From positions 1-30,545 of the forward strand of contig SXIP01000291.1 of assembly GCA_005772825.1 (NCBI GenBank): a stretch of 30,545 nt of DNA, written 5' to 3'. The position numbers were made by a program, and so were the translations under genes. This document shows, piece after piece, positions 1,699-15,590 of the stretch. Under the pieces are notes generated by a model, which was given only the letters and a program-made list of their open reading frames with translations, was not told the DNA's origin and made no database searches. The number at the start of each line of letters is the position of its first letter. Positions within the stretch are counted from its first letter, which is position 1. The DNA is from Methylococcaceae bacterium (GTDB lineage Bacteria; Pseudomonadota; Gammaproteobacteria; Methylococcales; Methylomonadaceae).

Positions 1699-3561
1699 TT
1701 AAAAATACATCCCCTGAATCAACACCCCTGTCTTTCCATCACGCACTTCGGCAAACAGCTTTTGCGGACCGGGTTGTTCCCTAAGGCGCACCAATTCAGC
1801 GACGCCGTTGCCGTTGAGGTCGGGGATGGAGATGAAGCCGACCGTGGTGCCATAGTTGTCGAAGACGACTTTATTGATGAAGGTATCGGTTAGGGTGTCA
1901 TGGACTTCGGCGCGAATTTGTCCATCTGAGGCGCGCAGGCCCAGCATTGCTAGGTGGGTTTGACTGTTGCTGTCGGCGACACTCGCCAATTTGAACGGTT
2001 GTGACAAGGCATAGTCCAGCGTATTCACCGGTAAACCGCTTAAGGTGTCTTTTAATGACACCCGTGCGGTATTGGTCCGCAAAACCCCTAACTCGGGGCC
2101 GCCTTTGTTATTCAGGTCAGGTAGATTAATCAGTTGCTTTAGTTCTTGGCCGCTGCCGTAGCTGATGGTGCGTATTAATGCGCCGGTCTTGCTGTCATGT
2201 ATTTCTACGATGTCAGCCGCACTGGTGGTTTTGTTATCGGCCAGCACAGCGATTTCCCGTGATTGATTGGCGTTGAGGTCGCTAATCACCAGCAGATCAA
2301 TACCGTTGTAATTGGCGTTAAAACTGATGTTACGGATTTGCGCGCCGGTTAAGGCGTTTTTAAGTTGTACCCGCAGTTGCGTAGCGTTTTGTTGCAATAC
2401 CGCAAGGCCGGCGGTGCCTTTACCACTGATGTCTCGCACCACTCCCAGGTCCAGCGGTTTGAAGGCAGGATCAAACGGCATCGCACTGAGTTTGACGCCG
2501 CTCAAGCTGTCTCGCACTTCCACTTGTACCGCCTGATCACTGCTGCGCACACCCAGCACGGCGATTTCAGAAGCACCATTGCCGTTCAGGTCAGGCAGGA
2601 CATTGGCTTTAGTCGGCACAAATTGGCCGTTGAAGGTGATTTGCTTGACCAGGCCGCCGGTTCTGGCGTTTTTGACGGTGGCGGTGGATTTTTTGAGGGT
2701 GGGGTTATAGGTGATGACGGCGATTTCGGGGCTGTTGTCTTTGTTGATGTCGCCGAGTGAGAGAAGCGGGGTGGCATTGATGGTAAATTGATCCTTTGCC
2801 TTATACATTTCCATTACCTCCGTATCTGAAAGAGTTCTATTATAAATACGAACACTGTCTATGAGACCAGCATAGAATCTAGCATCTCTATTTAGAAGAA
2901 ATGCACCTATATTTAGATCGCTAAAATCTACTGCTGTATTATTCACTACTGAAAAAGTAGTGTTCGTATCTAAAATACCATTTACATAAAGATATGATGT
3001 TCCAGTATCGCCGTTCATAACCCATACAACATGCTGCAATTGGTTCAGTTGAATTGCTGTATTTCCATAGAATTCACTTCCGACCGGACCTGTACTTTGA
3101 GAAGGCTGGATTCCGTATTCAGCAGAATGAATTCTGCATTCACCAGACACCGTTCTTAGAGAAAATACAACTTTCCCCCAAGTCCATCTCGTTGACCCAA
3201 TAATTGAACCATCGGTATTAATCTCACATGATGAAGGTTTTATCCATGCGCTGAAAGTAAATGTATTATTTACAGGCGACGGAAAATAATTCAGAAGGCC
3301 GATATAATCACCAGTTCCGTTGAAATTATATGCGCTATTAGGCTTCCCGTTTCCATCGGTAGTCAATGTAGCTCCATTTACTGTCCCGTAATTTCCATTC
3401 CCACTTTCATCATTAGCATTTCCATTGAAAGGGTAATAAGCAACCAATCCGTTATTTAGGTCCGCTTTTGCAAGTATAGGCAAGAGTAAGGCCATCGAAA
3501 AAAGTATCGCAATACTCTTTTCGTTGAATCCATGTTTTTGGTGTTTCATGTTGTTATTCAT
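1699..3561 (-). CDS. Secreted LamG (ConA-like lectin/glucanase) domain + seven-repeat FG-GAP/beta-propeller protein, paralog 2 (620 aa)
   Basis: Complete ORF with a GGGGA Shine-Dalgarno 6 nt upstream of the ATG. It has a K-rich N-terminus plus a hydrophobic signal peptide (SIAILFSMALLLPILAKA) and a LamG_3 signature (LVAYYPFNGNANDESGNGNYGTVNGATLTTD…VRIYNRTLSDTEVMEMY). Seven repeats of about 50 aa follow, each with a D-x-N-x-(D/N)-G loop (LGDINKDNSPEIAV, LPDLNGNGASEIAV, ISDLNANQSREIAV, IPDLNGNGVAELV …). Confidence 0.85.
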   Translation of the reverse strand: MNNNMKHQKHGFNEKSIAILFSMALLLPILAKADLNNGLVAYYPFNGNANDESGNGNYGTVNGATLTTDGNGKPNSAYNFNGTGDYIGLLNYFPSPVNNTFTFSAWIKPSSCEINTDGSIIGSTRWTWGKVVFSLRTVSGECRIHSAEYGIQPSQSTGPVGSEFYGNTAIQLNQLQHVVWVMNGDTGTSYLYVNGILDTNTTFSVVNNTAVDFSDLNIGAFLLNRDARFYAGLIDSVRIYNRTLSDTEVMEMYKAKDQFTINATPLLSLGDINKDNSPEIAVITYNPTLKKSTATVKNARTGGLVKQITFNGQFVPTKANVLPDLNGNGASEIAVLGVRSSDQAVQVEVRDSLSGVKLSAMPFDPAFKPLDLGVVRDISGKGTAGLAVLQQNATQLRVQLKNALTGAQIRNISFNANYNGIDLLVISDLNANQSREIAVLADNKTTSAADIVEIHDSKTGALIRTISYGSGQELKQLINLPDLNNKGGPELGVLRTNTARVSLKDTLSGLPVNTLDYALSQPFKLASVADSNSQTHLAMLGLRASDGQIRAEVHDTLTDTFINKVVFDNYGTTVGFISIPDLNGNGVAELVRLREQPGPQKLFAEVRDGKTGVLIQGMYF

Positions 3562-3679
3562 GTTAAATCCCCTCTAAATTAAAAGGCTTGCTAAAAAATG
3601 TCATCATTGTTTATGCCTACGCGGGAAGGGCAACATACACCGTCCGGCTGAGAAAATATGTTGCCCGACTCCAGGCAAC

Positions 3680-5506
3680 TTAAAAATACATCCCCTGAAT
3701 CAACACCCCTGTCCGACCATCACGCACTTCGGCAAACAGCTTTTGCGGGCCTGGTTGTTCTCTGAGACGCACCAGTTCGGCGACGCCGTTGCCGTTGATG
3801 TCGGGGATGGAGATAAAGCCGACGGTGGTGCCGTAGTTGTCGAAGACGACTTTATTGATCAAGGTATCGCTGAGGGCGTCATGGATTTCCGCGCGAATTT
3901 GTCCGTCGGAAGCGCGCAGGCCCAGCATGGCCAGGTGGATTTGACTGTTGCTGTCGGCGACACTTGCCAATTTGAACGGTTGCGACAGGGCATAGTCCAG
4001 CGTATTCACCGGTAAACCGCTTAAGGCGTCTTTTAATGACACCCTGGCCGTATTCGCCCGCAACACCGCTAACTCGACGCCGCCGTTGTTATTCAGGTCC
4101 GGTAGATTAATCAGTTGCTTTAGTTCTTGGCCGGTGCCGTAGCTGATGGTGCGGATTAATGCGCCGGTCTTGCTGTCGTGTATTTCCACGATGTCGGCAG
4201 CACTGGTGGTTTTATTATCGGCCAGTACGGCGATTTCCCGCGATTGATTGGCGTTGAGGTCGCTAATCACCAGCAGATCAATACCTTTGTAATTGGCGTT
4301 AAAACTGATGTTGCGGATTTGCGCGCCGGTTAAGGCATTTTTAAGTTGTACCCGCAGTTGCGTAGCGTTTTGTTGCAAGACGGCCAATCCCGCTGTGCCC
4401 TTGCCGTTTATGTCCCGCACCACGCCTAAGTCAAGGGGTTTGAAGGCAGGATCAAACGGCATCACACTGAGTTGGACGCCGCTGAGACTATCCCGGACTT
4501 CCACTTGTACCGCCTGATCACTGCTTCGCACACCAAGCACGGCGATTTCTGAAGCACCATTGCCGTTCAGGTCAGGTAAGACATTGGCTTTAGTCGGTAC
4601 AAATTGGCCATTGAAGGGGATTTGCTTGACCAATGCGCCGGTTTGGGCGTTTTTTACGGTGGCGGTGGATTTTTTGAGGGTGGGGTTATAGGTGATGACG
4701 GCGATTTCGGGACTGTTATCGTTGTTGATGTCGCCGAGGGAAACAAGCTGAGGTGTGTTCGGGATTTCCTGGTAGAGTTGCTGAATTTCTGAGGCCGATA
4801 AGGCACGGTTGTATATACGAACATTATCTAAACTGCCACGCATATAAAATTCAAAACCTGTATGAATACTTTTTCCAATAAAACCTTTTGACATGCCCGT
4901 ATTATGTGATTGAGGGAACAAATGTGTGCCTATATTTAAACCGTTCAGATAAATATTCAACCTACTGTTTTTATATACATATGTTGTCATGCTCCATTTA
5001 TTGGCTATTAAAGGCGTATTACTGATAAACCAATCTGCACCAGAGCCCGTATCAAATCCCATTAGCCCTAGCCACGGTGCCGCGTATCCACCCCATGATG
5101 ACGTACCGTAAAGAATTGCAAAAGTTTTCCATTCTTCAGGCATTCCATAAGAAATAATCGCCCCAATAGACGTTCCAGTATCGAGTTTTGCCCAAACAGA
5201 TATTGTTCTTTCATGACTTCCAGACGGTAATGTATTGAGGTTCAATTCGATAAAGCTAGCACCATCAAAATAATACGCGCTATTTTGATTACCGAATCGA
5301 TCCTCAACTAAACTTGCTCCGTATACCGTTCCATCATTCCCATTTAAACTTTCATCTTTTGCATTGCCATTGAACGGATAATAAGCGACTAATCCGTTAC
5401 TTAGATCGGCTATTGCAAGTGTTGGGAAGAGCAAGGCTATCGCAAAAAATATCGCAATTCTGCTTTTCTTAAATACCGGTTTTTGGTGTTTTATATTGTT
5501 ATTCAT
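3680..5506 (-). CDS. Secreted LamG + FG-GAP/beta-propeller protein, paralog 3 (608 aa), with a distinct LamG head
   Basis: Signal peptide RIAIFFAIALLFPTLAIA. LamG motif LVAYYPFNGNAKDESLNGNDGTVYGASLVEDRFGNQNSAYYFDG…VRIYNRALSASEIQQLY. The C-terminal 370 aa are about 95% identical to paralogs 2 and 4. Confidence 0.85.
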   Translation of the reverse strand: MNNNIKHQKPVFKKSRIAIFFAIALLFPTLAIADLSNGLVAYYPFNGNAKDESLNGNDGTVYGASLVEDRFGNQNSAYYFDGASFIELNLNTLPSGSHERTISVWAKLDTGTSIGAIISYGMPEEWKTFAILYGTSSWGGYAAPWLGLMGFDTGSGADWFISNTPLIANKWSMTTYVYKNSRLNIYLNGLNIGTHLFPQSHNTGMSKGFIGKSIHTGFEFYMRGSLDNVRIYNRALSASEIQQLYQEIPNTPQLVSLGDINNDNSPEIAVITYNPTLKKSTATVKNAQTGALVKQIPFNGQFVPTKANVLPDLNGNGASEIAVLGVRSSDQAVQVEVRDSLSGVQLSVMPFDPAFKPLDLGVVRDINGKGTAGLAVLQQNATQLRVQLKNALTGAQIRNISFNANYKGIDLLVISDLNANQSREIAVLADNKTTSAADIVEIHDSKTGALIRTISYGTGQELKQLINLPDLNNNGGVELAVLRANTARVSLKDALSGLPVNTLDYALSQPFKLASVADSNSQIHLAMLGLRASDGQIRAEIHDALSDTLINKVVFDNYGTTVGFISIPDINGNGVAELVRLREQPGPQKLFAEVRDGRTGVLIQGMYF

Positions 5507-5584
5507 GGTTAATAATTTCCCCTTTGTTAAAAAACGCTCTTAAATCCACCATCTTGTAAATTGGATAAAAACAGCTCTCCCTCA

Positions 5585-7543
5585 CTAAAAATACATCCCC
5601 TGAATCAACACCCCTGTCCGTCCATCACGCACTTCCGCAAACAGTTTTTGCGGGCCGGGTTGTTCTCTTAAGCGCACCAGTTCAGCTACGCCGTTGCCGT
5701 TGATGTCGGGGATGGAGATGAAGCCGACGGTGGTGCCGTAGTTGTCATAGACGACTTTATTAATCAAGGTATCGCTCAGGGCGTCATGGACTTCCGCGCG
5801 AATTTGTCCGTCGGAAGCGCGTACGCCCAGCATGGCCAGGTGGGTTTGACTGTTGCTGTCGGAGACACTCGCCAGTTTGAACGGTTGCGACAGGGCATAG
5901 TCCAGGGTATTCACCGGTAAACCGCTTAAGGCGTCTTTTAATGACACCCGCGCGGTATTCGCCCGCAACACCGCTAATTCGGCGCCGCCGTTTTTATTCA
6001 GGTCCGGTAGATTAATCAGTTGCTTTAGTTCTTGGCCGGTGCCGTAGCTGATGGTGCGTATTAATGCGCCGGTCTTGCTGTCGCGGATTTCCACGGTGTC
6101 GGCGGCGGTGACGGTTTTATTGTCGGCCAGCACGGCGAGTTCCCGCGATTGATTGGCGTTGAGGTCGCTAATCACCAGCAGGTCAATACCGTTGTAATTG
6201 GTGTTAAAACTGATGTTGCGGATTTGCGCGCCGCTCAAGGCATTTTTAAGTTGCACCCGCAGTTGCGTAGCGTTTTGTTGCAGGACTGCGAGGCCCGCTG
6301 TGCCCTTGCCGTTGATGTCCCGCACCACCCCCAGGTCCAGGGGTTTGAAGGCAGGATCAAACGGCACCGCGCTGAGTTTGACACCGCTCAGACTGTCACG
6401 CACTTCCACCTGTACCGCCTGATCACTGCTGCGCCCACCGAGCACGGCGATTTCGGACGCGCCGTTGCCGTTCAGGTCGGGCAGGACATTGGCTTTAGTC
6501 GGCACAAATTGGCCGTTGAAGGGGATTTGTTTGACCAAGGCGCCGGTTTGGGTGTTTTTTACGGTGGCGGTGGATTTTTTGAGGGTGGGGTTATAGGTGA
6601 CGACGGCGATTTCGAGGGCTCCGTCTTTGTTGATGTCACCAAGTGAGAGAAGTGAAGGAATGCTTAGTTGAATTACTGGATTTTCATTGAAACGATCAGA
6701 GAAATCAGTTTTGGCGAAATCGTAAAACACAATATTATCGAGAATCGCATCAGCGTGAATACCATCCCAATTGTGTCGCCCAAGGTAATTTAAGCGGGAA
6801 GGAGGAAGATCGTTTCTTACCGGGCAATTTGGATTTCCTACCAACGCAAGTGATCCGTCGAAATATAAACGAAATAGATCGGTTGTGTTACCGATTCCGT
6901 TATTATCCCAAACCATTGCCCAGTGGTGCCATTGCCCAGTCTCGAAATGAATTCCGTGGCTGCTGTAAGTGCCTGTCAAATTAATTTGCCATCCATCTAT
7001 ACAGCTTTCTATCGGAAAAAATCCAGCTACGATAGTACCAGCACCATCACCCCAGTAGCCAAGCACAAGTCGTTGAGAGCTTAGACCAAGGCTTGTATCA
7101 AATAAAATATGTGTACCCACTCCCGACGACGGCCAAGAGGTTTTGACCCATAACGCGATCGTACCGCGTGAATTCAATATGAGGCTGTTAATCAGCGATT
7201 CGTCTAACAAAAAATATCCAGGAAAAGAACTATCCATCCTGACACCGTTACCGAATCGCCCTGACTCATAATTGACATCACCTGTCTGCACTAAAGGCGG
7301 TCCGACTTCGCTGTTTGTTGCTTGTTTATTGTCTCCAAGCCTATTCCACAAAACAACATCATCTGCTTGCGCGAATTGCACAAACACATTGCTGAAACCA
7401 AAGAGCAAAAATGAGAACGATAAAATGCCATACATCAAAGCAGTATTAAATTTCTGTCCGCTCTTTATGTATATAACCATAATGAAGCTTTTCGAGGCAG
7501 ATAGGGTTTTGATACCGGATTTTACAAAATCAGGTGTGTTCAT
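5585..7543 (-). CDS. Secreted jelly-roll (LamG-like, divergent) + FG-GAP/beta-propeller protein, paralog 4 (652 aa from the 7543 start; alternative ATG starts at 7480 or 7435)
   Basis: The N-terminal 280 aa are unrelated in sequence to paralogs 1-3 but have a LamG-like character (ALWVKTSWPSS…WHHWAMVWDNNG…LFRLYFDGSL). A hydrophobic segment MYGILSFSFLLFGFSNVFVQFAQA is a likely signal peptide. The C-terminal propeller is conserved. A weak AGGAA Shine-Dalgarno lies 9 nt upstream of 7543. Confidence 0.8.
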   Translation of the reverse strand: MNTPDFVKSGIKTLSASKSFIMVIYIKSGQKFNTALMYGILSFSFLLFGFSNVFVQFAQADDVVLWNRLGDNKQATNSEVGPPLVQTGDVNYESGRFGNGVRMDSSFPGYFLLDESLINSLILNSRGTIALWVKTSWPSSGVGTHILFDTSLGLSSQRLVLGYWGDGAGTIVAGFFPIESCIDGWQINLTGTYSSHGIHFETGQWHHWAMVWDNNGIGNTTDLFRLYFDGSLALVGNPNCPVRNDLPPSRLNYLGRHNWDGIHADAILDNIVFYDFAKTDFSDRFNENPVIQLSIPSLLSLGDINKDGALEIAVVTYNPTLKKSTATVKNTQTGALVKQIPFNGQFVPTKANVLPDLNGNGASEIAVLGGRSSDQAVQVEVRDSLSGVKLSAVPFDPAFKPLDLGVVRDINGKGTAGLAVLQQNATQLRVQLKNALSGAQIRNISFNTNYNGIDLLVISDLNANQSRELAVLADNKTVTAADTVEIRDSKTGALIRTISYGTGQELKQLINLPDLNKNGGAELAVLRANTARVSLKDALSGLPVNTLDYALSQPFKLASVSDSNSQTHLAMLGVRASDGQIRAEVHDALSDTLINKVVYDNYGTTVGFISIPDINGNGVAELVRLREQPGPQKLFAEVRDGRTGVLIQGMYF

Positions 7544-7822: not shown

Positions 7823-8154
7823 TTTCCCAAGTTCCGCTCTCATCGTTATACACAACTCGATGTAGGCCGGAATAAGTCTGTCCGCGCTTTAGCGCAGGAC
7901 AGGCGTTTCCGGCACTTCGAAGCCGTGTGATGCCGGAAACACACGCCCTTGCTGCCGCCGGGCGTGCTTATTCCGGCCTACTTTCAAGTCTGTGGGAGCA
8001 CGTCATTCCGGCATGGATTGCCGGAGCCGTTAGAACGCGTAAGCGAATCCAGGGCATAGGGATGTGTTCGAAGTTACCGTCCATGGCCTGGATACCCGCT
8101 TCCCGGCTGGTATGACGACACTTGATGTATAACAGTGAGAGCTAGAACGAGCTG
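7823..8154. mobile_element. MITE-like nested palindromic repeat, copy B, inverted relative to copy A. The inner core is 7862..7981 with the same 15-bp terminal inverted repeats. An extra palindrome-rich segment of about 124 bp lies at 7997..8120.
   Basis: The outer inverted repeats ctcatcgttatacacaa … ttgatgtataacagtgagagctagaacgagctg match copy A. The core equals the reverse complement of 1506..1624. Confidence 0.75.
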
Positions 8155-8157
8155 AAA

Positions 8158-9321
8158 TTAGATCTTTGTCCCTCTATCAGTCAAACGCACCATATCGTTC
8201 ATGACGCCGTCCAGCCCGCCATAGACGTTGAGCGTGTTGATACGGGCGGTGATCTTTTCCAGTATTTCCAGTTCTTTCAGGCGTAGCAAAACCGGGTTGC
8301 CTTCCATGACTTTGGCTGTGTTATGCAGCGAACGGGTCGCTTGGGTTTCTTCCTGGCGCTTGATCAGGTTGGCTTCCGCCAGCTTTTGCGCTTCGACAAC
8401 CTGGGTCAGAATGGCTTTCATTTCGCCGGGCAAGATGATGTCGCGCGCGCCCACGGCCTTGACCTCAATCCCGTAGCTCGCGGCTTTTTCCACAACGATG
8501 CCGAGAATTTGGCTGTTCAGCGAATTCTTGTCGGCCAGCAGTTCGTCGAGCGTTTGCGTGCTGACAATGGTGCGCAAGGCCAGTTGCAATTCCCGGTATA
8601 GGAAGTCTTTGGCATCGGCCAATTCCGCCTTGACCACTTCAGGTTGTTTTATCTGCCAGGTGGCCGACAGATTGATACGCAAACTGACCCGGTCTTTGGT
8701 CAGGATTTCCTGACCGTTCACTTCCATATTTTGTAAACGACCGTCATACAACGATACCGTAATAGTCCGGTTGAAACGCCACCAGACATGGGTGCCGGAG
8801 TTTAAAGTCGCCAGCGTCTCGCCATCCACGGACAGAAAACCGATATGATTTTCCGGGACCGTAGCGATGACGATAGAGGCTATGACTGCTTTTCGTAACA
8901 GGTCATCCTTGCTGTTGGTCAATAGCGCGGCCAGTTTTTTTGCTACGCTAAAGTTCTCGCTAATGTCTGTTTTTTCAACACGGATTTCCTGACCGGTTTT
9001 CCAGTAAGCGCCGCTTTGCGCAGGTGCTTTAATATCCTTCAGCCCGTTTTTCTGGTAAACCAGACCGACTTCCTGCTCGCCGGTTTCCCATAGCGTCAGG
9101 CTGTCGGCAAAAGCCGCCGGATGCAATTCGGCCAGATCCAACACATCCTTGCTTACGCCATTCTGTAAGGTATTGGTGATCGTAACAGTTTGAAGCTGAT
9201 ATTGATTGAAACAATCCCAAAACTTATGAACGCCCGGCTGCAATACCTTGATGAACTGTTGCTCTTTAAATAACAGGCCGCGCTGGGTTTCCGGGATAAT
9301 GATTTTTTTCGTTAACAGCAT
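8158..9321 (-). CDS. SPFH/band-7 (stomatin/prohibitin/HflC-like) domain protein, 388 aa from an internal ATG with a strong Shine-Dalgarno
   Basis: C-terminal RDIILPGEMKAILTQVVEAQKLAEANLIKRQEETQATRSL…NPVLLRLKELEILEKI is typical of SPFH. The ORF-track start at 9507 would run into the tRNA-like genes. The ATG at 9321 is preceded by taAGGAGagcatt, giving spacing 6. Confidence 0.8.
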   Translation of the reverse strand: MLLTKKIIIPETQRGLLFKEQQFIKVLQPGVHKFWDCFNQYQLQTVTITNTLQNGVSKDVLDLAELHPAAFADSLTLWETGEQEVGLVYQKNGLKDIKAPAQSGAYWKTGQEIRVEKTDISENFSVAKKLAALLTNSKDDLLRKAVIASIVIATVPENHIGFLSVDGETLATLNSGTHVWWRFNRTITVSLYDGRLQNMEVNGQEILTKDRVSLRINLSATWQIKQPEVVKAELADAKDFLYRELQLALRTIVSTQTLDELLADKNSLNSQILGIVVEKAASYGIEVKAVGARDIILPGEMKAILTQVVEAQKLAEANLIKRQEETQATRSLHNTAKVMEGNPVLLRLKELEILEKITARINTLNVYGGLDGVMNDMVRLTDRGTKI

Positions 9322-9570
9322 AATGCTCTCCTTAAAATAAAAGCGACAAAGCCTCCACACGTCGTCGGCTCCCGACTTTATGAGCTGCGGGCAAGCGGGC
9401 TTTACGGTTTGCGCACAGGTCAGACCCGGACGGAAGGCGGTGTCCGTGTTGACGTTGGGTATATGCAGATCGGGCTGGCTATCCATGCTTGTTCGATCTA
9501 CAGCCACCTTCCGTCGGGAGGTTTGTCTATGCCCTTGCGGGCTGGATTTTAAGCTACCGTTTCAGGGTAG

Positions 9571-9644
9571 GTTCACTAGCCGGGGTCGAACCGGCGACAG
9601 ACTGATGATGAGTCAGTTGCTCTACCATACTGAGCTATAGTGTA
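9571..9644 (-). tRNA. tRNA-like gene, 74 nt, anticodon CAT (Met/Ile2-like). It has an A2:A71 acceptor mismatch and C at position 37.
   Basis: Manual fold: acceptor TACACTA/TAGTGAA, D-arm GCTC-AGTATGGTA-GAGC, anticodon arm ACTGA-CTCATCA-TCAGT, variable loop CTGTC, T-arm GCCGG-TTCGACC-CCGGC. It was not checked with tRNAscan. Confidence 0.5.
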
Positions 9645-9646
9645 TG

Positions 9647-9717
9647 TGCCGCCAGTTGGGATCGAACCAACGACAGGCCCGAGGTCGGGCTGCTCTACCG
9701 GACTGAGCTATGGCGGC
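9647..9717 (-). ncRNA. tRNA-like RNA, 71 nt. It has canonical acceptor, D and T arms, but the anticodon arm collapses to a 5-bp stem with a 4-nt loop, so it has no usable anticodon.
   Basis: Manual fold: GCCGCCA-TA-GCTC-AGTCCGGTA-GAGC-A-GCCCG-ACCT-CGGGC-CTGTC-GTTGG-TTCGATC-CCAAC-TGGCGGC-A. No register gives a 7-nt loop. It lies 2 nt from the preceding tRNA-like gene, is on the same strand as rtcB, and starts 106 nt downstream of it. Confidence 0.45.
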
Positions 9718-9823
9718 GTTTTTGACGCCTTGATGTCATCGATACGCAATCCCGCCAGAGGCGGTTGCGTCAGGCAGGCTCGGAACCTGCTCCACGGATA
9801 ACAACGGTGTGTCAAAACCGGTT

Positions 9824-11029
9824 TTAACCCTTGACGCAAAGTACCTGCTTCAAGGTATGGACAATTTCCACCAGGTCGGCCTGCGCGGCCATGACCTTGT
9901 CGATGGGTTTGTAGGCTGACGGGGTTTCGTCGATCACGCTCGCGTCTTTACGGCATTCCACGCCTGCGGTCGCTTCGATATGCTCGGCCAGCGACACGCG
10001 CTTTTTAGCTTCGGTGCGGGACATGATGCGACCGGCGCCGTGGCTACAGCTACAGAAACTCTCTTCGTTACCCAAACCCCGCACGATGAACGATTGCGCC
10101 CCCATGCTGCCGGGGATGATGCCCATTTCACCCAGTCGTGCGCTCACCGCGCCTTTACGGGTTACCCAGACGTTTTTATCGTAGTGATGTTCGCGGCTGA
10201 TGTAGTTATGGTGACAATTCACCGCTTCGGTATGCGCTTCGAACGGCACCGGCAATACTTCGCGAATCGCCTGCAAGGTGTTTGTCATCATCACTTCCCG
10301 GTTGACCTGGGCGAAGTCTTGCGCCCAGGCAACGGCTGCAATGTAATTTTGAAAATGCTCGCTGCCTTCCGGGATATAGGCTAAATCTTTATCGGGCAAA
10401 TGGATGAACCAACGCTCCATGTCTTTTTTCGCCTGTTCGATAAAATGCGTACCGATCCGGTTACCGACTCCGCGTGATCCGCTGTGCAACATCACCCATA
10501 CGGCATTGTTTTCATCCAGGCAAATCTCGATGAAGTGGTTGCCTGTTCCCAAGGTACCCAGGTGGTTCAGATTATTGGTATTCTTCAGGAACGGATGTTT
10601 TTCGCACAAGCGCTGGAAACCTTCATCCAGCGCCAGCCACGCCTGTGTTATCTCTTCCGGCGGTTTACCCCAGCTTCCGGTATCGCGTCCGCCGCGGAAA
10701 TTCACTGAACGGCCATGAGGAACGCGTTGTTCTATCGCATTGCGCATGGCCGATAAAGAATCCGGTAATTGCTCGGCGGCCAGGCTGGTTTTTACCGCCA
10801 TCATTCCGCAACCCAAATCCACACCGACAGCGGCGGGGATGATAGCGCCGATGGTCGCGCCTTTACCGACATGCACATCCGGCATTACGGCAATCCATTT
10901 GTGTATAAAAGGCATGCGCGCGATATTTTGCAATTGCTGTTTTGAGTTATCGTCAAAACTGACGCCGCGCGTCCAGGATTTGATAGGGTGTTTACCTGCT
11001 TCGGATATAACTTCATAGGCGGTGGTCAT
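9824..11029 (-). CDS. rtcB: RNA 3'-phosphate/2',3'-cyclic phosphate RNA ligase RtcB (401 aa)
   Basis: Full-length match to the RtcB family by recognition (…MPDVHVGKGATIGAIIP…GNHFIEICLDE…HSGSRGVGN…CSCSHGAGR…). Confidence 0.95.
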   Translation of the reverse strand: MTTAYEVISEAGKHPIKSWTRGVSFDDNSKQQLQNIARMPFIHKWIAVMPDVHVGKGATIGAIIPAAVGVDLGCGMMAVKTSLAAEQLPDSLSAMRNAIEQRVPHGRSVNFRGGRDTGSWGKPPEEITQAWLALDEGFQRLCEKHPFLKNTNNLNHLGTLGTGNHFIEICLDENNAVWVMLHSGSRGVGNRIGTHFIEQAKKDMERWFIHLPDKDLAYIPEGSEHFQNYIAAVAWAQDFAQVNREVMMTNTLQAIREVLPVPFEAHTEAVNCHHNYISREHHYDKNVWVTRKGAVSARLGEMGIIPGSMGAQSFIVRGLGNEESFCSCSHGAGRIMSRTEAKKRVSLAEHIEATAGVECRKDASVIDETPSAYKPIDKVMAAQADLVEIVHTLKQVLCVKG

Positions 11030-11103
11030 GGCTTGTTCCTGTTGTCTGTTGTTGTTTAGGAATGAAAATTAAATTACTTGAGCATTTTATCCCCTCTCCC
11101 CAA

Positions 11104-11124
11104 CCCTCTCCCGGAGGGAGAGGG
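11104..11124. promoter_or_regulatory. Perfect 9-bp-stem palindrome ccctctccc-gga-gggagaggg in the rtcB leader, preceded by a direct copy of ccctctccc
   Basis: Read directly. It lies between the predicted sigma-54 promoter at about 11175 and the rtcB ATG at 11029. Confidence 0.4.
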
Positions 11125-11167
11125 AGCCGGTTGTCGAAGTTATTTTCATTCCTTACATGATTGATAA

Positions 11168-11321: not shown

Positions 11322-12917
11322 ATGAATACGGTGGTTATCGGCATACTGGGTTCGCGTCTCGATCACGCAGGTTTCGGCAAAAGGCGCTTTGAACGTTGGC
11401 GGCCCAGCGTTTCCTTACTGATGCACGGCAGTTTGCGGGTCGATGAATTTGTCTTGATCCATCATCCCGATGAAGCCGAGCTTGCCGGTATCACGATGCG
11501 CGATATGCGGGCTGTTTCCGGGCAGACCCTGATAAGGCCTTATCAGGTTGATTATGCCGATCCCTGGGATTTTGAGCAGGTTTACAGCCAGTTGCATGAT
11601 TTCACGCGCAGTTATACGTTTGATCCGGAACAAAACGACTATTACGTGCATATCACTACCGGTACTCATGTCGCGCAAATCTGTCTGTATTTGTTGACCG
11701 AAGCGAACTATATTCCCGGCAAACTGCTGCAAACCTCGCCGAGCAAAGCCGGTATCCAGGGCACTTATCGGATGATCGACCTGGACCTGTCGCGTTATGA
11801 CCAGATCGCGTCGCGGTTCAAGCGGGAAGCGCAGGACGGCATTGCCTATCTGAAAAGCGGCATCGAAACCCGCAACACGGCATTCAACGAGCTGATTTCA
11901 CAAGTGGAGCAGGTATCCATCAAATCATCGGCGCCGATGTTATTGACCGGCCCGACCGGTGCCGGTAAGTCGCGTCTCGCCAAACGCATTTACGAGCTGA
12001 AAAAACAGCGCGGGCAATTGACCGGCAAACTGGTCGAAGTGAATTGCGCTACCTTGCGCGGCGATAATGCCATGTCCGCCTTATTCGGCCATGTCAAAGG
12101 CGCTTTTACCGGCGCGTTCAGCACCCGCACGGGCTTATTGCGCGAGGCGCACAAGGGTTTGTTATTTCTCGATGAAATCGGTGAATTGGGTTTGGATGAA
12201 CAGGCGATGCTGCTGCGTGCGATAGAGGATAAGGTATTCATGCCGTTGGGCGCCGACAACGAGATTGGCAGTGACTTTCAGTTGATAGTCGGGACCAATC
12301 GTGACCTGTTTGAACAGGTGCGGCTGGGACGTTTTCGAGAAGACTTGCTCGCGCGCATCAATTTATGGACCTACGAATTGCCTTCCTTGAAGCAACGCAT
12401 GGAAGATTTTGAGCCCAATCTGGAACATGAATTACAGCAATTCACCTTCCAGGCGAATCACAAAGTCAGTTTCAACAAAGCGGCGCGTGAGCGCTATCTT
12501 GCTTTCGCCTACTCGCCGCAAGCGCTATGGCGGGCAAACTTCCGCGATTTGAATTCCAGCGTCACCCGTATGGCGACCCTGGCGACCGGCGGACGGATTA
12601 CCGAAGAAATCGTCGCGGGCGAAATGGTGCGTTTGCAGTACGCCTGGTCAGGATTTATAGATCAGACACCTGTTGTAATCGATACATTGGCCGGGCTGTT
12701 GCCGCCGCAAACCTTGGCTGAGCTTGATTTGTTCGACCGGATGCAGCTTGCCGAGGTCGTGAGGCTGTGCAGGGAAAGCCGCAGTCTGGCTGAAGCAGGG
12801 CGCCGATTATTTAATGTCAGCCGCACCCAAAAAGCCAGCAGCAACGATTCCCATCGCCTCAAGCAATATTTACAACGCTTTGGCCTGGTTTTTCAGGATG
12901 TATGTAAGGGTGGTTGA
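11322..12917 (+). CDS. rtcR: Sigma-54-dependent transcriptional activator RtcR (N-terminal CARF domain, AAA+ sigma-54 interaction domain, C-terminal HTH), 531 aa
   Basis: N-terminus MNTVVIGILGSRLDHAGFGKRR…HITTGTHVAQICLYLL is CARF-like. Walker A is LLTGPTGAGKSRLA. GAFTGA is present, with LLFLDEIGEL as Walker B. The gene is divergent from rtcB. Confidence 0.9.
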   Translation: MNTVVIGILGSRLDHAGFGKRRFERWRPSVSLLMHGSLRVDEFVLIHHPDEAELAGITMRDMRAVSGQTLIRPYQVDYADPWDFEQVYSQLHDFTRSYTFDPEQNDYYVHITTGTHVAQICLYLLTEANYIPGKLLQTSPSKAGIQGTYRMIDLDLSRYDQIASRFKREAQDGIAYLKSGIETRNTAFNELISQVEQVSIKSSAPMLLTGPTGAGKSRLAKRIYELKKQRGQLTGKLVEVNCATLRGDNAMSALFGHVKGAFTGAFSTRTGLLREAHKGLLFLDEIGELGLDEQAMLLRAIEDKVFMPLGADNEIGSDFQLIVGTNRDLFEQVRLGRFREDLLARINLWTYELPSLKQRMEDFEPNLEHELQQFTFQANHKVSFNKAARERYLAFAYSPQALWRANFRDLNSSVTRMATLATGGRITEEIVAGEMVRLQYAWSGFIDQTPVVIDTLAGLLPPQTLAELDLFDRMQLAEVVRLCRESRSLAEAGRRLFNVSRTQKASSNDSHRLKQYLQRFGLVFQDVCKGG

Positions 12918-14966: not shown

Positions 14967-15590
14967 CAGGGGCAGTGCGCCATATAGGGTATATGGCAGA
15001 CCTCCAACGGATGCAACCGAATTTTTGTGTAATCAACCTGACATAAAATCGCTGTATCATCCTTGAACGGCAGTAAGCGGATAACGCCGGAAACTAGAGT
15101 TTGTATTGCCGAATGCCTTCTGCAAAACTGCAACAGCTCATTCATCTGGGCCGCTTATATACGCTGGTCAGAGCGCATCCGCACGTCTAAACCGTGAAAT
15201 TTTCGGCAGGACCGGCGCTATATTGGTACGTAATATTCGCGTAATTGCACCTGTCTGGTACAAACAGGCAAACCGGAAATTATCTTTGTTATGCGGCTCA
15301 CGGTTTTTATCTCACCATTAAATATTGCAAGACATTGATTGTTATAGTTTATTTTAAATAATGCTTTACAGTACTTGGTGACGGTAATACATAAATGGCA
15401 CATAACATGCTGAGATTTAGCAATGTAAGTCAGGTTAAATCACGAGTTTCTCATTTAATTTTCAAGCCTTGATACAGGCGGATATCGGTGCATTTTGCTA
15501 AGCAGCGATTCGGTCGCTTGTGTGAACCGCTAAAAGCCGCCGCTTGATAAATAGAGAATTTTCAATCCAACCATAAATCAGGTAACGACG

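Follow-up and report, generated by a model that had tools for sequence, protein, structure and literature searches.

Tandem tRNA-like elements downstream of rtcB in a Methylococcaceae bacterium match the predicted band-7-associated tRNA class and are linked to an SPFH gene

In Salmonella, the rsr-yrlBA-rtcBA operon encodes the Y RNA YrlA together with Ro60 (Rsr) (Chen et al. 2014, PMC4201824; Hughes et al. 2020, PMC7790460). The CARF domain of the regulator RtcR binds 5' halves of tRNAs that end in a 2',3'-cyclic phosphate, and competitive inhibition of the nuclease by YrlA was raised as a possibility by Hughes et al. (PMC7790460). Another tRNA-resembling noncoding RNA, b7a-tRNA (band-7-associated tRNA), was predicted computationally by Burroughs and Aravind in 2016 (Nucleic Acids Res 2016;44:8525), as related in the passages of the preprint by Wang et al. 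(bioRxiv 10.1101/312249) that deal with it; there it is likened to YrlA, with which it is proposed to share a redundant function, and is described as experimentally unvalidated. Here we analyze a 30,545-nucleotide (nt) stretch of DNA from a Methylococcaceae bacterium (contig SXIP01000291.1 of assembly GCA_005772825.1), hereafter the window, in which two tandem tRNA-like elements, denoted A and B, lie between rtcB and a gene encoding an SPFH/Band-7 protein. A sequence-only reading of this DNA had interpreted them as non-decoding tRNA mimics in an RtcR/RtcB operon, analogous to Salmonella Ro60/YrlA, and as a new variant of that theme. Loop anatomy and non-conserved anticodons bear out the first of these ideas, and the analogy is the one drawn in bioRxiv 10.1101/312249; the claim of novelty falls away, because A and B match the b7a-tRNA class as it is described in the same passages. 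The literature searched contained no other paper on b7a-tRNA or on a tRNA-like RNA joined to SPFH, and no experimental work was found.

The elements and the two genes that flank them are:
11029-9824, minus strand: rtcB, RNA ligase (Pfam RtcB, 416.7 bits)
9717-9647, minus strand: tRNA-like element A (ARAGORN, Rfam tRNA model, minimum free energy [MFE] fold, family alignment; covariance model R2, 77.8 bits)
9644-9571, minus strand: tRNA-like element B (ARAGORN, Rfam tRNA model, family alignment; covariance model R1, 88.9 bits)
9321-8158, minus strand: SPFH/Band-7 ("slipin") gene, 387 amino acids (Pfam Band_7, 107.5 bits), with the Shine-Dalgarno sequence AAGGAG at 9333-9328

Both elements were recognized as tRNA-like genes by ARAGORN [9646-9717(-) and 9570-9644(-)] and by the Rfam tRNA model (RF00005; 51.0 bits for A and 50.1 bits for B, with a gathering score of 29). 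As initially described, they are co-oriented with rtcB, begin 106 nt past its stop codon, are 2 nt apart (CA, 9646-9645) and have the variable loop CTGTC in common; the D arms are nearly identical. Element A, counted second in the sequence-only reading, is the upstream one in transcription. Its 7-bp acceptor, D and T arms are all perfect, and its MFE structure is identical to the cloverleaf (-32.9 kcal/mol, z = -2.9), with an anticodon arm, GCCCG-ACCU-CGGGC, that has a 4-nt loop; the 3' end is CA, a degenerate CCA (ACA). Element B has a 7-nt loop, CUCAUCA, with a CAT anticodon and C37, an A2:A71 mismatch in the acceptor and no CCA. Except for the CCA ends, these peculiarities of the two elements had been noted from the sequence and were recovered with the Rfam tRNA model and by folding. 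The nucleotides that are canonical for the elbow and core of a tRNA (U8, A14, G15/C48, G18G19, A21, the T-loop UUCGA and G53-C61) are all present in both elements.

The mimic interpretation was to be abandoned if detection programs called both elements ordinary, high-scoring tRNAs. The programs do call both; the scores of about 50 bits lie at the low end of the range of 48.8-71.4 bits spanned by ordinary tRNAs scored likewise. The score alone is no mark of abnormality, and the case against decoding therefore rests on loop anatomy and comparative data. A decoding tRNA combines a 7-nt loop, U33 and a purine at position 37 with an anticodon conserved among orthologues. The loop of A is the 4-nt ACCU and that of B contains C37; across relatives, the B triplet differs and the A loop varies in length. 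Homologous elements occupy the corresponding position in dozens of genomes, far more than chance would produce.

For these comparisons we collected 80 rtcB loci, one genome per species (L numbers designate loci). In about half of these, ARAGORN detected one or two co-oriented tRNA-like genes 3' of rtcB, with odd "anticodons," namely, two-base calls or triplets with A34 (att, aaa, aag and aca). Alignments of 34 B-type and 27 A-type copies were used to build covariance models R1 (B) and R2 (A), which were run on all loci. Cloverleaf pairing was retained in 94.8% of the alignment cells for B and 95.7% for A, compared with 24-46% when the partner column was slid; compensatory double changes were detected at 15 of the 21 cloverleaf pairs, and none of 500 shuffles matched the covariation score. 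None of the 60 distinct sequences departs from the D stem GCUC/GAGC or from the elbow nucleotides (G18G19 of the D loop and the Levitt-pair positions).

Variation is instead tolerated at the anticodon end, in a different manner in the two types. A-type loops consist of 3-7 nt or more, with no sequence conservation, and L038 has practically lost the arm (63 nt in all). B-type loops mostly have 7 nt, with the triplet CAT in 15 of 34 copies, GTT in 11 and ATT, AAG, ACG, ACT, AAT or CAA in most of the others. Four B copies contain G33, and C37 is a trait of the clade that includes the window. Between the near-identical B bodies of L003 and L011, for example, the differences are mainly in the D loop and at loop positions 33-34, and betaproteobacterial B copies have 4-5-nt loops, GAAA tetraloops included (short loops occur, for example, in L052, L058 and L062). 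The acceptors also diverge: that of A is G-C-rich and fully paired, with an encoded N-CCA in 18 of 35 loci and at least N-CC in 24 of 35, abutting position 1 of B, whereas that of B is A/U-rich, usually without CCA, with pair 1:72 open in 19 of 33 copies and pair 2:71 open in 8 of 33. Because B-type acceptors are often frayed and C37 occurs throughout the clade, the A2:A71 mismatch and C37 are family or clade traits and not local decay.

Thus, A and B are neither decoders nor decaying pseudogenes. In the alignments, both the L-shaped body and the mature ends appear to be under selection, and, given that A copies encode an N-CC(A) end that directly abuts B, a free-standing mature RNA appears likely.

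Several loci depart from this tandem arrangement. In five loci of the Ketobacter/Pseudomonadales type (L042, L046, L056, L059 and L066; for example, L042 5405-5455), one full cloverleaf with a CAT loop was detected, followed in the leader by a lone T-arm-like hairpin, GGGGUUCGAAUCCCC; the second copy seems to be reduced to a minihelix. In L065, L041 and L074, rtcB lies within arrays of ordinary tRNAs (18 in L065 and 6-8 in L041 and L074); this pairing of rtcB with tRNA genes is of another kind and recalls tRNA-array islands.

The sequence-only reading tied the elements to rtcB, included the SPFH gene in the same unit and proposed checking whether rtcB is always followed by the elements. The SPFH gene does belong to the unit, and it, rather than rtcB, is the gene to which the elements are linked. 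Among loci with at least 2.5 kb of downstream sequence, all 47 with an SPFH homologue carry the element, compared with 5 of the 22 without one (Fisher's exact test, p = 4e-12). The elements follow rtcB in only about half of the 80 loci, and the SPFH-less loci mostly lack them (17 of 22). Of the five SPFH-less carriers, two carry the element right where the fetched sequence stops (L025 and L050) and two are the ordinary tRNA arrays of L065 and L074; L004 is unexplained. In L004, a tandem tRNA-like pair (6809-6954) is located 1.6 kb 3' of rtcB, and an SPFH homologue is undetectable in the next 1.4 kb.

Regardless of the genes further upstream, 233-411 nt separate the last element from the SPFH start codon in 44 of these 47 loci (outliers, 493 nt in L069, 836 nt in L036 and 862 nt in L055); in the window, the gene starts 249 nt 3' of B, on the same strand. 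By comparison, the element lies from about 100 nt to 3.8 kb away from rtcB, with rtcA inserted between the two in L066 and L076-L079 and several other genes in L028 and L025. Given the linkage in 47 of 47 loci and this narrow SPFH spacing, as opposed to the variable distance from rtcB, the obligate partner of the elements appears to be the SPFH gene and not rtcB.

Units that lack rtcB altogether were sought with an RNA-first pattern, CTGACRC..GYGTATC..TAGCTCA, which spans the structured domain 5' of the elements (see below) and the start of A, in JGI/ENA metagenome contigs. As a control, the pattern matched 28 rtcB loci, solely at the expected site. In the metagenomes, it matched 90 stretches, and 80 of these were retrieved as loci; about half of the matches were due to chance (no T arm and no proteins), and only those with two T arms were used. 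All such matches with enough downstream sequence have an SPFH homologue that starts about 370-520 nt further on (about 1.2 kb in L149). Six of these contigs (L107, L117, L132, L134, L110 and L149) contain no rtcB or rtcR in the available 1.7-8.8 kb upstream or in the downstream sequence. The covariance model detected the tandem pair in five of the six and a single element in L107. In L134, a perfect sigma-54 promoter, TGGCAC-N5-TTGCA (7124-7139), is located shortly 5' of the 5' domain, and a gene for a sigma-54 activator, cut by the end of the locus, is nearby. In L117, the cassette directly follows mutS, with a weaker version of the promoter, ..CTTCTCGCA, right after this gene (~5561-5578).

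Because the RNA and the SPFH gene occur together without rtcB and rtcR, and in L134 with their own sigma-54 promoter, these contigs suggest that the two form an autonomous cassette. In the window, this unit is fused behind rtcB, and a promoter of its own was not detected there. Occurrence of the same elements at loci without rtcB had been regarded in the sequence-only reading as evidence against it; the metagenomic contigs go part of the way, redirecting that reading toward SPFH without destroying it.

More distant SPFH genes were also encountered. In E. coli (L082/L083), an island between yjbD and lysC, present in 1425 of 5426 complete genomes, carries a slipin gene (38% identical to the SPFH protein of the window; L083 2205-3332), a nucleotidyltransferase gene and a divergent gene of the zeta-toxin family, with no rtcB. 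The 530-nt gap 5' of the slipin gene (L083 1676-2204) contains a sigma-54-like sequence, TGGCAC-N5-TCGCA, and a T-arm-like hairpin, UGGGUUCGAUUCCCA; no annotated RNA, Rfam hit or full cloverleaf was found in this gap. The leader of the E. coli slipin gene is perhaps related to the same RNA in a reduced form. In L089, L092, L162 and L146, a distant SPFH homologue (33-37% identity) is accompanied by a single tRNA-like hit located about 450 nt downstream, not upstream, which also fits the pattern for the 5' domain; the arrangement may be an alternative one, or the pattern may have matched by chance next to a real tRNA. A phage origin was considered and rejected: viral contigs yielded one distant SPFH relative with too little upstream DNA and no tRNA-like hit.

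The SPFH protein of the window, named "slipin family protein" by NCBI, contains no clear transmembrane segment (maximum 19-residue hydropathy, 1.52). Its start at ATG 9321 is backed by tblastn alignments in the loci that begin at residue 1; an alternative start, GTG 9507, was rejected because homology begins at ATG 9321 and the stretch upstream is covarying RNA. The AlphaFold2 model (mean predicted local distance difference test score, 77) comprises beta repeats at the N-terminus together with an SPFH domain and a long helix. A Foldseek search with this model retrieved stomatin, HflK/C and prohibitin (E-values from 1e-14 to 1e-10), as well as the major vault protein over about 450 alignment columns that cover the beta repeats, the SPFH shoulder and the helix; the latter match is a structural resemblance only (10-12% identity, query-normalized TM-score of about 0.4). 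As far as is known, all solved SPFH proteins form a ring or cage, as do stomatin, HflK/C and prohibitin. The model thus suggests a soluble protein with the fold of a cage former, similar to the vault protein, that may oligomerize and bind RNA.

The elements are embedded between two further structured domains:
9822-9718, minus strand: 5' structured domain, 105 nt (alignments of 20 sequences and MFE folding)
9570-9349, minus strand: 3' structured domain, the leader of the SPFH gene (RNAalifold and a second alignment)

The 5' domain consists of helices P1 (UUUGAC/GUCAAA), P2 (GCAGG/CCUGC) and P3 (ACGCAA..UUGCGU, 9770-9744) and includes the conserved blocks AAUUUGG, CAGCGG, CUGnCUGACRC, GYGUAUC and CCAAAUAA, kept in Gamma- and Betaproteobacteria. 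Among the 19 consensus pairs in the 20 sequences, 8 are compensatory, and the MFE is -38.3 kcal/mol (z = -2.4). A hairpin had been proposed from the sequence at 9753-9777 as a possible attenuation site; it is present, with the coordinates 9770-9744, and is helix P3 of this domain instead. A TTGACA motif at ~9815 was rejected as a promoter because it is the 5' strand of the covarying helix P1. Where the spacing between rtcB and A is wider (L003, L008 and L011), the added DNA lies between the rtcB stop codon and the 5' block.

The 3' domain begins directly after the discriminator of B with hairpin 1 (9570-9554), which covaries by clade (CUACC/GGUAG, CUGGU/ACCAG and CCACC/GGUG), followed by a GNRA-like hairpin, GCCCG-CAA-GGGC, and a multi-helix structure closed by the pairing of AAACCUCC (9524-9517) with GGAGGCUU (9356-9349). 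In 11 sequences of the Methylococcales type, RNAalifold predicted 49 pairs, 26 of them compensatory, with 93% of the cells paired compared with 34-40% in slid controls and no match in 500 shuffles; deriving the structure from this very alignment inflates the contrast. Eleven sequences of the Cellvibrio group, aligned independently, yielded the same closing helix and the helices nested within it, with compensatory changes at 20 of 34 pairs. The closing helix is of the CCUCC:GGAGG type, and the structure ends about 15 nt before the Shine-Dalgarno sequence. Altogether, the conserved RNA extends from ~9822 to ~9349, about 470 nt, ending just 5' of the ribosome-binding site of the SPFH gene. Apart from A and B, recognized as tRNAs, and a YrlA match below threshold, Rfam 15, searched over 9200-9900 at E <= 10, gave no credible match.

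The control region of the operon lies on the other side of rtcB:
11322-12917, plus strand: rtcR, divergent from rtcB (Pfam RtcR, 246 bits, and Sigma54_activat, 157 bits)
11183-11169, minus strand: sigma-54 promoter, TGGCAT-N5-TTGC, upstream of rtcB (reading of the sequence and pattern search)

RtcR, a sigma-54-dependent activator with the RtcR/CARF domain at the N-terminus, belongs to the NCBIfam RNA_repair_RtcR equivalog (774.8 bits; cutoff, 650), and the RtcB homologues from Methylococcales, Thiotrichales and Cellvibrio are 70-97% identical. By these RtcB homologues, the organism belongs to the Gammaproteobacteria, close to Methylococcales and Thiotrichales. The promoter has one mismatch to TGGCAC-N5-TTGC and is the sole sigma-54 site that the pattern search detected near the operon, the only other match in the window being located at 15396 on the plus strand. 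The divergent RtcR (CARF plus AAA+) and the -24/-12 promoter are those of an RtcR-RtcB(A) sigma-54 RNA-repair operon. A Pfam scan of the open reading frames of the window detected neither an RTC domain (rtcA) nor a TROVE domain (Ro60/Rsr), in agreement with the sequence-only reading. The order on the minus strand is promoter, rtcB, a 105-nt spacer, A, CA, B, a 249-nt spacer and the SPFH gene. No intrinsic terminator was found between rtcB and the SPFH gene, and the minus strand from 11500 to 7900 contains no terminator-like site; nor was a second promoter, sigma-54 or minus-strand sigma-70, found just upstream of A in the window. With the sole sigma-54 site upstream of rtcB and no terminator-like site, rtcB, the RNA and the SPFH gene are probably co-transcribed.

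The surroundings include several repeats and unrelated genes. The rtcB 5' untranslated region contains a hairpin, CTCCCTCTCCCTCCGGGAGAGGGTTGGGGAGAGGGG (11091-11126, minus strand), between the sigma-54 promoter and the start of rtcB, with near-identical copies elsewhere in relatives, in the rtcB-RNA spacer of L003 and the SPFH leader of L016; it looks like a family of repeats similar to repetitive extragenic palindromes or miniature inverted-repeat transposable elements. On the 3' side of the SPFH gene (~7860-7985, minus strand), a perfect 15-nt inverted repeat, GTAGGCCGGAATAAG ... CTTATTCCGGCCTAC, encloses about 90 nt of hairpin-rich DNA, possibly a miniature mobile element or a structure that marks the operon end. 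Further 3' of the SPFH gene (1699-7543, minus strand) are three tandem paralogues encoding proteins of 608-652 amino acids with Laminin_G_3 and FG-GAP repeats, which are not kept beside the module in relatives.

The interpretation we favor, with a confidence only a little above even, is that a single transcript driven by RtcR and sigma-54 covers rtcB, the RNA and the SPFH gene and that the processed mimics and the SPFH protein form an accessory ribonucleoprotein (RNP) for damaged tRNA, interchangeable with Ro60-YrlA. A damaged-tRNA signal would activate RtcR, and transcription from the promoter at 11183-11169 would proceed through rtcB, the RNA and the SPFH gene. RNase P would then cleave 5' of A and again 5' of B, the latter cleavage also creating the 3' end of A, which in most relatives is already N-CC(A). 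Together with 3' processing, these cuts would release tRNA-sized RNAs with an intact elbow and acceptor and a useless anticodon arm, and would separate the rtcB and SPFH mRNAs. One or both mimics would bind the SPFH ring or cage, yielding an RNP analogous to Ro60-YrlA or to the vault with its RNA, which could aid or channel the handling of broken tRNAs, whether for repair or for triage, by RtcB or, where rtcB is absent, by other enzymes.

Several points weigh against this interpretation. Expression, processing and binding are predictions for every member of the family, b7a-tRNA being given as unvalidated where bioRxiv 10.1101/312249 discusses it. A direct role with RtcB is not obligatory, given the units without rtcB. 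Strong conservation of the leader is equally expected of a purely cis-regulatory element, and in the window the CCA of A is degenerate. In Pseudomonas aeruginosa, the SPFH gene paFlo8 sits in the rtc locus, and its deletion had no phenotype, under conditions that excluded RNA damage (2026 study, PMC13086221).

A broader scheme can be put forward tentatively. In it, the autonomous sigma-54 cassette would combine the composite RNA of about 470 nt with a soluble, vault-like SPFH cage into a bacterial RNP compartment, comparable to vault-vRNA or Ro-Y RNA, that plugs into different repair operons. Its RNA parts may be the three-helix 5' domain, the CCA-ended A with its truncated anticodon arm, the frayed-acceptor B with a switchable, Met- or Asn-like loop, and the multi-helix 3' domain with its closing CCUCC:GGAGG helix.

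An alternative without any functional free RNA, which we consider unlikely, is that the elements act only in cis: the cloverleafs would be RNase P/RNase Z punctuation and the flanks a leader, which together uncouple the mRNAs and set the translation or stability of the SPFH message, the excised RNAs being functionless. The constant presence of the elements in the SPFH 5' leader at a narrow spacing is what this scheme predicts, as is their embedding in covarying structure that ends about 15 nt before the Shine-Dalgarno sequence, with a CCUCC:GGAGG helix closing the 3' domain, and the stand-alone cassettes open with the same 5' domain right after the sigma-54 promoter. However, RNase P requires merely the acceptor-T minihelix, and the D stem, G18G19 and the Levitt-pair positions are nevertheless invariant in 60 sequences, while some 70% of the A copies retain an encoded N-CC(A) end. 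Taken together, these features favor selection for a free RNA that is mature and L-shaped, and two copies with distinct conserved characters exceed the needs of punctuation.

Quite unlikely, in our judgment, is a role as a decoy or sensor for anticodon nucleases, in which B, and perhaps A, would imitate the tRNA targets of toxins or colicins, either soaking up the nuclease or, once cut, yielding 5' halves with a 2',3'-cyclic phosphate that act back on the CARF domain of RtcR. The loop of B resembles that of tRNA-Met (CUCAUAA) or tRNA-Asn (CUGUUAA) in 26 of 34 loci, and close relatives differ in this loop although their bodies remain the same. Among the tRNAs known to be attacked by nucleases (VapC and colicin E5) are initiator tRNA-Met and tRNA-Asn. 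The binding of cyclic-phosphate 5' halves by CARF and the suggestion that YrlA competes for a nuclease (PMC7790460) fit as well. Yet the loop is not the conserved part: A loops range from 3 to more than 7 nt, and several B loops have 4-5 nt or are GAAA. Moreover, the RNAs of the window are located 3' of rtcB and hence would be made only after induction, and this explanation accounts neither for the SPFH link nor for the stand-alone cassettes without rtcR.

That the elements are ordinary tRNA genes or decaying pseudogenes placed beside rtcB by chance, for example, as a remnant of tRNA-targeted integration, is highly improbable, because, although ARAGORN and Rfam call both within the range of real tRNAs and some rtcB genes lie in ordinary tRNA arrays (L065, L041 and L074), a 4-nt loop cannot decode, B combines C37 with a non-conserved anticodon, and 95% pairing with compensatory changes as well as the narrow SPFH spacing are kept across orders of Gamma- and Betaproteobacteria.

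To our knowledge, the only accessory RNP studied for bacterial RtcB is Ro60 with Y RNA. If the favored interpretation holds, the module of SPFH protein and tRNA mimic would be a second solution, apparently interchangeable with Ro60/Y RNA. A soluble SPFH cage holding tRNA-shaped RNA would add a new type of RNP compartment to those of bacteria, and the flanking domains and the division of labor between A and B would be undescribed parts of this machine. The module is widespread in Gamma- and Betaproteobacteria, including the cultivable Methylomicrobium, Cellvibrio and Thiothrix, and the related SPFH island is found in about a quarter of the complete E. coli genomes. The coordinates, the two covariance models, the likely processing sites, the promoter and the prediction of SPFH as the partner render the 2016 prediction testable.

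In comparison with described systems, the closest correspondence is to b7a-tRNA. Of the traits given for that class where bioRxiv 10.1101/312249 describes it, the strong likeness to tRNA is seen here in the Rfam, ARAGORN, MFE and covariation results; an adjacent Band-7/SPFH gene is found at 249 nt on the same strand and in 47 of 47 loci; and the neighborhood is one of RtcB-centered repair, with rtcB 106 nt upstream and rtcR divergent, a trait that is facultative across the family. Nothing in A or B contradicts membership in this class, which is absent from Rfam 15.

With YrlA, the elements share the nature of a tRNA-mimic noncoding RNA in an RtcR/sigma-54 RtcB operon, beside a ring-forming protein as the proposed partner, and the conserved T and D arms with the nucleotides of the tertiary contacts, without decoding. 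They differ from it in that the window contains no rsr gene and in that YrlA is permuted and carries a Ro-binding helix, whereas the cloverleafs of A and B are complete and in the normal order, with a 7-bp acceptor. Membership in the YrlA family (RF02553), for which the sequence-only reading had proposed a check with the Rfam model, was rejected: the match scores 25.1 bits (gathering score, 69), only model positions 27-81 are covered, and rsr is missing. This weak match (9619-9675, minus strand; E = 0.005) comprises the T arm of A, both acceptor strands and the D arm of B, so that its span across the A/B junction has the permuted order seen in YrlA. It is a speculative possibility that mimics of the YrlA type derive from a junction between tandem tRNAs.

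Cloverleafs within a polycistronic transcript, with the mRNA cut by RNase P and 3' processing, are also known from the E. coli tRNA-tufB operon and from mitochondrial tRNA punctuation; those are functional tRNAs, whereas here the anticodon arm is degenerate and the elements go with a single downstream gene family. On the protein side, stomatin has an N-terminal membrane hairpin that is absent from the SPFH protein of the window. Vaults consist of an SPFH-containing shell protein with small noncoding RNAs, and the module resembles the major vault protein and vault RNA both in the placement of an SPFH-containing protein beside a small noncoding RNA and in the fold. The dimorphism of A and B, the covarying domains that flank them and the vault-like SPFH fold may go beyond the published account of b7a-tRNA.

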